A DNA stretch of 60,513 bases, taken from an uncultured Verrucomicrobiae bacterium (GTDB lineage Bacteria > Verrucomicrobiota > Verrucomicrobiia > Limisphaerales > JAFGQR01). The notes under the pieces were generated by a model. It had not been told where the DNA came from. It did no database searches and saw only the letters and a list, made by a program, of their open reading frames with translations. Shown piece after piece: positions 1,609 through 56,915 of the stretch. Position 1 is the first letter of the stretch. Each line of letters begins with the position of its first letter. The DNA is taken from assembly GCA_963788655.1 (NCBI GenBank), contig CAWBHS010000104.1:1-60513 (forward strand), read 5' to 3'. A program made the translations under genes and the position numbers.

Positions 1609-2838
<1,230 letters not shown>

Positions 2839-2842
2839 AATT

Positions 2843-2896
2843 GGATTGCGGATTGCGGACCTTCCATTGCGGAATGCGGATTGCGGATTGCGGATT
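2843..2896. repeat. Heptamer tandem array (ATTGCGG/AATGCGG), downstream arm of four-helix-bundle cassette 1
   Basis: Six units in register from 2845 to 2893, with one in-register 7-nt variant ACCTTCC (2859-2865). It is the reverse complement of the array at 3323-3371. Confidence 0.95.
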
Positions 2897-2898
2897 CG

Positions 2899-3252
2899 TT
2901 ACGGGCGACGGCGGGTTGTGTTGATGGACGCGACGGTGATGGCGACCAATTCGTCCGCTTCCTTCAGCAAGAGATCCAACTTGCGTTGTTTCACCAGCCC
3001 GGCATCCACCAGAAGTTCCATCCAGTAGCTGGTTTCGTCGGCTTCTTCCTCCACCGTGCCCATTTTGGAGATAAAGTCGGCGTTCGATTTAGCCCGGCAG
3101 GCAGCGCGGTAGTTGGCCCCAACCGATGTACCCGCCCGCAGCAGTTGCCGGCCCAGCACCCGGCCCGTTTGGGTCGCGGGTATCGTTTCCACCAGTTTGA
3201 TGATTCGCAAGGCGAAGGCCTTCGTTCGTTGTTTCATTTGGTTCGCATCCAT
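2899..3252 (-). CDS. Four helix bundle protein (23S rRNA IVP / TIGR02436-like), 117 aa
   Basis: MDANQMKQRTKAFALRIIKL...QLLRAGTSVGANYRAACRAKSNADFISKMGTVEEEADETSYWMELL. AGGA lies upstream of ATG 3252. The longer ORF-track start reads through the repeat array. Confidence 0.92.
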   Translation of the reverse strand: MDANQMKQRTKAFALRIIKLVETIPATQTGRVLGRQLLRAGTSVGANYRAACRAKSNADFISKMGTVEEEADETSYWMELLVDAGLVKQRKLDLLLKEADELVAITVASINTTRRRP

Positions 3253-3322
3253 ACGTGTCCTGATTCTCTGAGTTTCAACGTTAGTTTGGCGTCCTGTGGA
3301 TGGACGCGTCCGAATTCTGAAC

Positions 3323-3370
3323 CCGCAATCCGCATTCCGCATTCCGCAATCCGCATTCCGCATTCCGCAA

Positions 3371-3371
<1 letters not shown>
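3323..3371. repeat. Heptamer tandem array (CCGCAAT/CCGCATT x7), upstream arm of cassette 1
   Basis: Seven contiguous units in the order AAT,ATT,ATT,AAT,ATT,ATT,AAT (21-nt super-period). The array abuts the stop codon of the upstream kinase. Confidence 0.95.
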
Positions 3372-6516
<3,145 letters not shown>

Positions 6517-10417: not shown

Positions 10418-10477
10418 GCTCCGGTCGGCGGGTCAAGGCGAAAGCTCCGGTCGGCGGGTCAAGGCGAAAGCTCCGGT
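10418..10477. repeat. 26-bp tandem duplication
   Basis: GCTCCGGTCGGCGGGTCAAGGCGAAA twice, plus a partial third copy GCTCCGGT. Confidence 0.85.
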
Positions 10478-17626: not shown

Positions 17627-17633
17627 GGAAAGG

Positions 17634-17701
17634 AATGACCAATGACCAATGACCAATGACGCAATGACCAGAGAATGCCCAGGAGGCAATGACCAATGAC
17701 C
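17634..17701. repeat. Heptamer array (AATGACC)n, upstream arm of four-helix-bundle cassette 2
   Basis: AATGACC x3, AATGACG-C, AATGACC, AGAG, AATGCCC, AGGAGGC, AATGACC x2. Starts 7 nt after the DUF58 stop. Confidence 0.93.
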
Positions 17702-18188
17702 GAACATTCGGCAGCAGTCAGCGGTAGTGAGTCGTGGGAGAATGAGAAGGTGAAGGACGCTTATCCTGAATCTTCGGGGTTCTTTTTCGAGCTTCGGGAA
17801 CAGGGAACGGAGCTTCCAGGGAGGAACTGTTTTAGGACCGGCACCGTTTGATCTTGAGGAACGGACGGCGAAGTTTGGAGAAGCCGTCATCCAGTTCGCC
17901 AAGAAGCTGCGTCCTGTACCAGCTAACAATCGCATTATCGACCAATTAGTCGGCTGCGGGACGAGTATAGGTGCCAATTACTGTGAAGCAGACGAAGCGG
18001 TTTCTAAAAAGGAATTTCTGAACAAGATCGGCACCTGCAAGAAAGAAGCCAAGGAAACCAAATTCTTCCTGCGAATGTCCGCCATTGCGGAACCCGAACT
18101 GAAAGCTGAAGCTCGCCGACTCTGGCGTGAAGCCAAAGAACTGCACCTCATCTTCGCCGCCATCTTCCGTAAAGGACGGGGGAAATGA
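17696..18188 (+). CDS. Four helix bundle protein (23S rRNA IVP family), one apparent frameshift near 17820; missed by ORF track
   Basis: Manual translation: PFDLEERTAKFGEAVIQFAKKL...DQLVGCGTSIGANYCEADEAVSKKEFLNKIGTCKKEAKETKFFLRM...EAKELHLIFAAIFRKGRGK*. AGGAGG lies 9 nt before ATG 17696, whose frame needs a 1-nt correction to join the domain. Confidence 0.85.
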
Positions 18189-18433
18189 CCAATGAACCAA
18201 GGCCCAAGTAATGACCAAGCAATGAGCACCCAGAGTTTAGAGATGCATGTTTTAAAGTCGCGTGCCGCGCGTCAGTCAGCGCCGCTAACTGGAACTTGGC
18301 GCTTTCGACCTTGGTCGTTCTGCGGTTATTGGCCATTGAACACTTATCGTTCGTCACCCCTTGGTTCCCGATCCTTCATTGGTCATTGGCACTTGTTCAT
18401 TCTCCGGTCATTGGTCGTTGGTCATTGGTCATT
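18184..18433. repeat. Downstream repeat region of cassette 2: AATGACC-like units (18184-18227), then inverted GGTCATT-like units (18313-18337, 18374-18433)
   Basis: GGTCATT, GGTCGTT, GGCCATT and GTTCATT units. The block 18374-18433 mirrors the upstream arm, including a 4-nt spacer (CTCC versus AGAG). Confidence 0.9.
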
Positions 18434-56775: not shown

Positions 56776-56915
56776 CTTCGCGGCTCTTCGCGGCCTGGTT
56801 GCGGCCTTCGCGGCCTTCGCGGCCTTCGCGGCCTTCGCGGCTTCGCAGCCTTCGCGGCCTTCGCGGCTCTTCGCGGCCTTCGCGGCTCTTCGCGGCCTTC
56901 GCGGCTCTTCGCGGC
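56776..56915. repeat. Tandem 9/10-mer array (CTTCGCGGC / TCTTCGCGGC), about 15 units
   Basis: Contiguous units without spacers, intergenic. Confidence 0.93.

Follow-up and report, generated by a model that had tools for sequence, protein, structure and literature searches.

Our data describe a compact cassette in which a small four-helix-bundle gene of the family PF05635/TIGR02436 is enclosed by inverted arrays of a seven-base repeat. It was found in a 60,513-nt stretch of DNA from an uncultured Verrucomicrobiae bacterium, and we refer to this whole stretch as the window. The feature is real and widespread among bacterial genomes, and as a system it is undescribed in the literature that we searched (main texts outside subscription journals), in which the only link between such a gene and such arrays is the one described for the Coxiella rRNA insert. 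To explain it, we propose a selfish, horizontally spread cassette with the order arm >, four-helix-bundle gene, < arm, the arms of which would be read by a pentamer similar to Avd and which would be inserted by host enzymes; we give this proposal as a whole an even chance of being right.

The cassette in the window

The first-pass annotation of this DNA had placed a 117-aa gene of the IVP family between two co-oriented kinase genes, an arrangement that is borne out by the open reading frame and by the Pfam and TIGR matches (Table 1). The encoded protein exceeds the curated cut-offs of both family models, scoring 68.1 bits against a cut-off of 33.8 for PF05635 and 96.2 bits against 24 for TIGR02436, and PF05635 is its sole Pfam match.

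Table 1. Features of the two cassettes in the window and of the genes next to the first one (positions in the window).
Feature	Position	Strand	Basis
Four-helix-bundle gene, PF05635/TIGR02436, 117 aa	2899..3252	-	HMM, structure model
Upstream (5') arm, 7 units GA(A/T)TGCG and a partial unit	3319..3372	-	Sequence, TRF, inverted repeats, fold
Leader of the cassette gene, SD-like AGGA at 3261-3258	3253..3318	-	Sequence reading
Downstream (3') arm; on the + strand 2 units, one defective 7-mer and 5 in-phase cores	2843..2897	+	Sequence, TRF, inverted repeats
Upstream histidine kinase, HisKA and HATPase_c, split by frameshifts in the assembly	3371..4407	-	Pfam
Downstream hybrid response regulator-histidine kinase (Response_reg-HisKA-HATPase)	1609..2838	-	Pfam
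Second cassette, unit AATGACC/GGTCATT, between DUF58 and BatA/vWA genes	17630..18433	+	TRF, family matches, relatives
PF05635 gene of the second cassette	about 17856-18173	+	Family match

The position of the arrays had also been described correctly. The upstream array begins at the stop codon of the upstream kinase, the TGA of which (3373-3371) overlaps the first arm unit (T-GA-TTGCG), and the complementary downstream array takes up 54 of the 60 nt from the stop of the ORF to the next ATG at 2838, so that 4-6 nt separate the end of the 3' arm from this start codon. By TRF, the period-7 unit is present in 6.7 copies upstream (3323-3372) and in 7.7 copies downstream (2843-2896), where one unit is defective. 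The three longest inverted repeats of the window all derive from the arms of this gene, one of them spanning 54 nt with 83% complementarity. A promoter scan of the cassette leader returned no sigma-70-type site, and the region 2300-3900 gave no Rfam match at E-values up to 1. Exact runs of two or more (A[A/T]TCCGC) units occur six times in the 8.96-Mb genome, compared with none or one in three shuffled versions.

Folding of the mRNA-sense strand recovers the stem of about 45 bp that had been predicted to loop out the ORF: 46 long-range pairs, interrupted by an internal loop of 6 nt, run from 3372:2844 at the outer end to 3319:2897 at the inner end, the z-score is -5.54, and none of 100 shuffled sequences folds equally well. 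The opposite strand folds too when it is treated as DNA (z = -5.90), and folding therefore picks out neither a strand nor a type of molecule.

Besides, single-base frameshifts split many genes between positions 1 and 20000 of the window, among them the upstream kinase, a GMP synthase-like gene and MoxR. These are most likely assembly errors, and the same may apply to an exact tandem of 26 nt at 10418-10477.

Related junctions and occurrence across genomes

Comparison with related junctions indicates that the window cassette is a discrete, acquired unit. Fourteen related loci that hold the upstream kinase were compared, and seven of them also hold a homologue of the downstream one, although the kinases are rich in paralogues and strict orthology of the junctions is thus unproven. 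The empty site that had been suggested as a check, with the two kinases adjacent, was found at four of these seven loci, where the gaps measure 12, 13, 21 and 27 nt; a fifth has a 153-nt gap without arrays. In the relative G444 the same arms surround REP-like palindromes and the gene is absent, and in the relative G325 they surround a deleted remnant of the gene (51% identity over residues 1-35, E 6e-5). The other seven of the 14 loci have a different downstream gene or none.

The upstream kinase of the window ends with LPL*, six codons shorter than the tail LPVDN(E/G)WNL* of its relatives. A truncation of the kinase by the insertion was considered and rejected: the relative with arms and gene remnant retains LPVDNEWNL*, so that the short tail reflects a later in-frame loss of six codons, which is common to the window kinase and G444 (LPI*). 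Apparent joints across the cassette in soil DNA (three runs, small shares) carry unrelated letters between the arms and were attributed to other organisms.

The link between gene and arrays extends far beyond this genome. The best 80 homologues share 55-71% identity and come from at least eight phyla, and 74 of them have enough flanking sequence to be scored. Arrays lie on at least one side at 54 of these 74 loci against 22 of 514 control windows, a count that omits three rows with runs of N (L042, L067, L086), and inverted array matches are present at 45 of the 74 loci, compared with 4 of 257 control pairs. Of 215 proteins in a wider set, 203 have both flanks, and a period-7 array was found in 145. 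The units of the two arms match in inverted orientation, with a mean distance of 1.14 at 70 two-armed loci compared with 3.02 for shuffled partners. One clade of the family (L143, L156, L172, L192, L212 and others) has arms based on 8-mers or 4-mers in place of heptamers, and hence the unit length varies by clade as well. The phage and viral collections yielded two records and five loci only, and a crude motif check, which is weak evidence, assigned none of 401 loci to an rRNA setting. A near-identical cassette at two unrelated sites was not found, the Nostoc copies with 98% identity sharing a homologous site. Judged from these sequence comparisons, the cassette probably moves between genomes as one unit.

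A probable pentamer and arms of five cores

The predicted structure of the cassette protein is all-helical and consists of four helices (pLDDT 97.4). Its closest solved structure, 2RLD (Z 17.6, rmsd 1.6, 108 aligned residues), comprises five chains, and the next match, 2GSC (Z 15.9, rmsd 2.4, 111 aligned residues), is a pentamer (PMC4990558). The structural kinship to Avd that had been pointed out earlier holds in so far as the fold is shared with 4DWL (Z 13.7, rmsd 1.9, 106 aligned residues), a score that lies just 0.9 above that of a designed bundle (Z 12.8). Avd is a pentamer as well, and in the DGR structure all five of its protomers touch RNA, with bases flipped into the crevices between protomers (10.1101/2023.10.23.563531). 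By analogy with 2RLD, 2GSC and Avd, the cassette protein is presumably a homopentamer. No catalytic motif was recognised in it, and we know of no function that has been assigned to PF05635 since the 1990s.

The length of the arms fits such an assembly. The score threshold was passed by 328 of 378 arms, whose length has its mode at 32 nt (68 arms, with 153 arms of 31-33 nt); 249 of them start at G1/A2 and 224 end at base 4 or 5. The 32-nt mode corresponds to five GAxT cores. Runs of a loosely defined core peak at five on both sides (81 and 74 of 190), whereas shuffled sequences never exceed four. A mode of four to five units persists after dereplication at 80% identity, and in other clades the upstream arm has its mode at five (25 of 70). 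The arms of the window cassette itself have seven to eight units, not five. The agreement between the five-core mode and the pentamer known for this fold suggests a five-subunit ring that reads its own repeats, and in the mechanism that we propose the Avd-like pentamer would read five heptamer cores on one strand, with one core for each subunit.

The repeat unit follows the protein sequence, as indicated by comparisons within the subfamily of the window protein (218 proteins, 201 with arrays), in which the distance between units grows as protein identity drops. Among 449 column-by-base tests, which were run on 97 disjoint nearest-neighbour pairs, the best combines residue 68 with base 7 (p 1.8e-6): base 7 differs in eight of ten pairs with a differing residue 68 and in five of 70 pairs with the same residue. 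Similar associations were seen in 101 loci that were fetched after the idea had been formed, although these residue-base tables are not independent of descent: K65 occurs with A6 in 5/5 cases against 1/78 otherwise, V/M/I60 with T6 in 14/14 against 4/69, and L/I68 with G7 in 0/9 against 64/84. The variants K65 and V/M/I60 may represent few clades. The pattern is visible in each arm separately, and at three cyanobacterial plasmid loci four of four predicted positions fit. All residues that co-vary with the unit in the subfamily (positions 60, 64, 65 and 68) belong to helix 3, and the window protein combines F60, M64, G65 and E68 with the expected unit GA(A/T)TGCG. A tree-aware test with independent pairs, for which just one to three pairs on supported branches were available, was not significant, so that shared descent explains part of the covariation. 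N-terminal columns, which raw mutual information had ranked first, were dropped, their rank probably being due to shared descent and to arrays running into the start of the ORF. For the proposed reader, the helix-3 residues 60, 64, 65 and 68 would set bases 5-7 of the unit.

The second cassette and gene-less doublets

All ten TIGR02436 matches in this genome have a period-7 or period-8 array within 420 nt, and several different units are used. The window holds a second cassette (Table 1), and the 3' part of this element (18184-18433) is a gene-less hairpin by itself. Its DUF58-BatA junction is conserved, since 25 of 29 related loci hold both neighbours; at 14 of these 25 the gap is 15 nt or less, including a genome of the same genus. 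The same gene cassette occupies the junction in one relative, and gene-less hairpins of other repeat families do so in three.

In this genome, we found 33 gene-less inverted doublets of the AATGACC family, 25 of which have a core spacing of 80-89 nt and none of which has the reverse polarity. On each strand their arms consist of three units, AGAG and two further units (e.g. C36:30094-30229 and C7:58102-58258, contig and positions), and the spacers are unrelated to each other except for two local pairs. A REP-like palindrome adjoins 15 of the 33 doublets in comparison to 172/2000. One gene-less hairpin with the unit of the window cassette itself is located at C26:110859. Such forms with a spacer between the arms (arm > spacer < arm) would be derivatives of the cassette.

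Arms as protein-binding sites or as an RNA stem

Read each on its own strand, the upstream and downstream arms yield almost the same base matrix. Mismatches between the arms show no excess of G-U, with 93 G-U against 108 A-C in 131 loci and 47 G-U against 81 A-C in 56 loci. Furthermore, arms do not pair better with their own partner than with arms of the same unit from other loci (25.2 against 22.6, 33 loci, p 0.10), and in gene-less elements the difference points in the opposite direction (18.9 against 20.1, p 0.08). These gene-less elements keep the motif of both arms, and their variable bases do not pair. Arms with the same profile, no tolerance of G-U and no compensatory pairing favour protein-binding sites over an mRNA stem that is cut by RNase III. 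In the proposed mechanism, the protein would bind the element as DNA, at both of its ends and most simply in single-stranded form.

The tie of the cassettes to transcription units fits an RNA-level role as well. In raw counts without a chance control, the cassette has the orientation of the upstream gene at 98 of 111 loci and begins within -12 to +10 nt of the upstream stop codon at 79 of 111 (24 of these in the form T-GA), and for 38 of 84 downstream arms the following start codon is no more than 15 nt away from the end of the arm. These counts are among the points in favour of a TRAP-like RNA switch, in which the pentamer binds the purine-rich upstream arm of the mRNA, controls its pairing with the downstream arm and in this way tunes the translation of its own and the next gene, so that the operon may come to depend on the cassette. 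Two further points agree with it, namely that Avd is an RNA binder and that heptamer repeats of the type TAACTGA are located immediately upstream of start codons (PMC4679880). Nevertheless, we consider such a switch unlikely: a downstream arm that served as a mere pairing partner would not be expected to keep its profile while lacking G-U tolerance and compensation, and gene-less elements retain both motifs with variable bases unpaired. The tie to transcription units can also result from selection for a host promoter and for sites at which insertion does no harm. A cassette that is read by its own pentamer at the DNA level, with neither promoter nor transposase of its own, would persist mostly in co-orientation at the stop-start junctions of operons, where it would be expressed from the host promoter and no gene would be broken.

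The first-pass annotation had interpreted the locus as an IVS-like cassette residing in mRNA. This view stands as far as a discrete acquired unit, the empty sites and the IVS-like architecture are concerned; it is not supported where the maintenance of the arms as an RNase III-cleavable stem in the mRNA is concerned, as there is neither an excess of G-U nor a preference for the own partner. That the arms exist for RNase III cleavage, with the ORF looped out or excised as in 23S IVSs, is improbable in our estimation, even though the 46 pairs (z -5.5) form a stem whose base brings the stop codon and the next start codon to within about 6 nt, and although in vitro RNase III does cleave the Coxiella IVS inside the heptamer repeats (PMC4990558). 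The low rank of this model is mainly due to the mismatch and partner-pairing results, which contain no sequence signature of selection on RNA pairing; in addition, cleavage needs neither a fixed polarity (33 against 0 doublets) nor a unit that is linked to the protein. RNase III cuts without religation, and such a cut would split the polycistronic mRNA. Cleavage at the arms could still take place as a side effect, and for an element whose arms are bound as DNA the mRNA hairpin would be a by-product, one through which RNase III can remove copies from 23S rRNA.

Insertion seen in Nostoc alleles

Filled and empty alleles could be compared at two Nostoc plasmid sites, a small sample, which belong to other subfamilies and have 77-99% flank identity; for the site of the window cassette no filled and empty alleles exist that are close enough. 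The filled alleles mostly have perfect five-core ends, one allele having four cores, their arms are perfect repeats, and they lie in the direction of the host gene. At one site, 176-202 nt of a small ORF have given way to the cassette, and at the other 328 nt of a cytosine methyltransferase gene, in neither case with a target-site duplication. In most alleles, the left junction is located at a one-unit look-alike in the empty allele, which is present on the left only. Both Nostoc cassettes (L416-L418; L405, L409, L414) replaced part of a DNA-acting gene, one being annotated as cytosine methyltransferase and the small ORF having what we take to be an HNH-like pattern. According to our proposal, the protein would hold the two ends of the element while host enzymes carry out the insertion.

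Replacement without target duplication and a look-alike at the left junction alone are also in line with a very improbable alternative, namely that arms are written and not inherited. Here, an Avd-like pentamer on the RNA of the sense-strand arm would recruit a host reverse transcriptase (RT), which extends both 3' ends at a DNA break by about five error-prone units and captures the DNA in between. The 3' end of each strand is indeed the complement of the sense arm, the 33 gene-less spacers are unrelated apart from the two local pairs, and Avd is an RT cofactor. However, neither the cassette nor the scanned neighbours contain an RT gene, the arms of the Nostoc cassettes are perfect repeats, and the base-level view covers two junctions only.

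Comparison with known systems

In a defining feature, the cassette departs from each of IVS, RAYT, DGR and IS/MITE. Like the cassette, the ORF-bearing 23S IVSs of Coxiella burnetii and Leptospira (PMC4990558) and the CPR rRNA inserts (10.1101/2024.02.27.582315) have the same protein family inside inverted arms. The 23S IVS of Coxiella burnetii, situated in helix 45, was acquired horizontally and has GACAGAT heptamer repeats before the S23p ORF (PMC4990558). With these IVSs the window cassette shares complementary ends that form a stem around the ORF (46 pairs). In contrast, it lies outside any rRNA gene, at a junction of protein genes with kinases on both sides, its arms are wholly periodic, linked to the protein and symmetric on both strands, and gene-less forms of heptamer cassettes exist.

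Avd (4DWL, 8UB7) has the same fold as the cassette protein at 13% identity, but unlike in DGRs the cassette gene is flanked by heptamer arrays and has no RT or template/variable repeat alongside: the flanking ORFs that were scanned are kinase and sensor genes, and no TR/VR-like pair is among the repeats listed for the locus. In REP/REPIN-RAYT systems, intergenic DNA is known to contain inverted doublets that lack a gene and have a fixed spacing. Their layout is alike, as one gene is flanked by cognate repeats and accompanied by many dispersed gene-less inverted doublets, represented here by the 33 AATGACC-family doublets without a reversed one. In contrast to RAYTs, the cassette protein is all-helical and lacks the HUH/Y1 transposase fold, and the units are tandem heptamers, not palindromes. 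Terminal inverted repeats with precise ends, as in IS and MITE elements, are present in the filled Nostoc alleles, and no transposase encoded in the cassette was detected by Pfam and TIGR profile scans; one may be borrowed from a RAYT or from the host.

The STRR sequences of cyanobacteria are heptamer repeats comparable to the cassette units. The class I motif of the P6b region in the Nostoc trnL intron is TDNGATT, and the whole region has been replaced repeatedly (PMC4476775). Rotating this motif gives GATTTDN, which is the unit at 44 of the 201 subfamily loci, including cyanobacterial ones. In the parts covered of the papers on P6b and TAACTGA (PMC4476775, PMC4679880), the repeats are linked to no PF05635-family protein. 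Bacterial heptamer repeats are common, polymerase slippage has been named as their origin (Mrazek 2007 as cited in PMC4679880), and gene-less arrays next to REP-like palindromes may hitchhike, but slippage produces no sharp five-core mode, no matched inverted partners of fixed polarity and no precise ends in filled and empty alleles, so that ordinary operators or slippage repeats of a small autoregulated gene, spread passively via recombination, are the least credible explanation of the arrays.

A wider proposal builds on the mobile cassette with pentamer-read arms, and we advance it tentatively, at somewhat less than an even chance. The cassettes would form an undescribed class of transposase-free elements, in which a pentamer reads five 7-base cores per end by a residue-to-base code and inserts by replacement at a one-unit look-alike. 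This class would be the common source of ORF-bearing 23S IVSs and of many heptamer repeats (P6b class I, STRR-type, TAACTGA-type), and its protein would be a small programmable reader of single strands. Our data tie PF05635 to the abundance of heptamer repeats in bacteria, which is otherwise ascribed to slippage, and the proposed mechanism makes sharp predictions, namely that five units are read, on a specified strand, and that single residues should each switch one base. If the binding holds true, the intervening sequences of 23S rRNA would mark one of the places where a general cassette lands, typing markers used in cyanobacteria, trnL P6b for example, would be mobile elements, and the Avd fold would have a second, probably older, role outside DGRs.

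Other repeat arrays

Some further arrays were observed in the window, in the same genome and in a relative. At 56776-56915 of the window, an array of a 9/10-nt unit (CTTCGCGGC, 15 copies) lies upstream of a TetR-like gene, and no inverted partner of it is among the repeats listed. Long GGATGCC/GGATGCT arrays are abundant in this genome (e.g. C7:35432, C76:52668); in the 86%-complete assembly, neither an inverted partner at a distance of up to 250 nt nor a family gene that matches them was found. In the relative G346, GATTGCG arms at two loci (L399 and L393) are nested with a second repeat family of about 9 nt (CCACGGAT/ATCCGTG type) and are placed after the stop codon of a homologous kinase. 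At C18:3533-6729 and C97:1-480, near-identical family genes have arms of 22-36 units in duplicated kinase contexts, and these long-armed loci may be real expansions or assembly duplicates. Finally, a four-helix-bundle gene with 8-mer arms (CAGCGTTT) at C60:4040-4700 is interrupted by a short ORF, which presumably resembles a small GIY-YIG nuclease, and arrays of the same 8-mer recur between several neighbouring genes.
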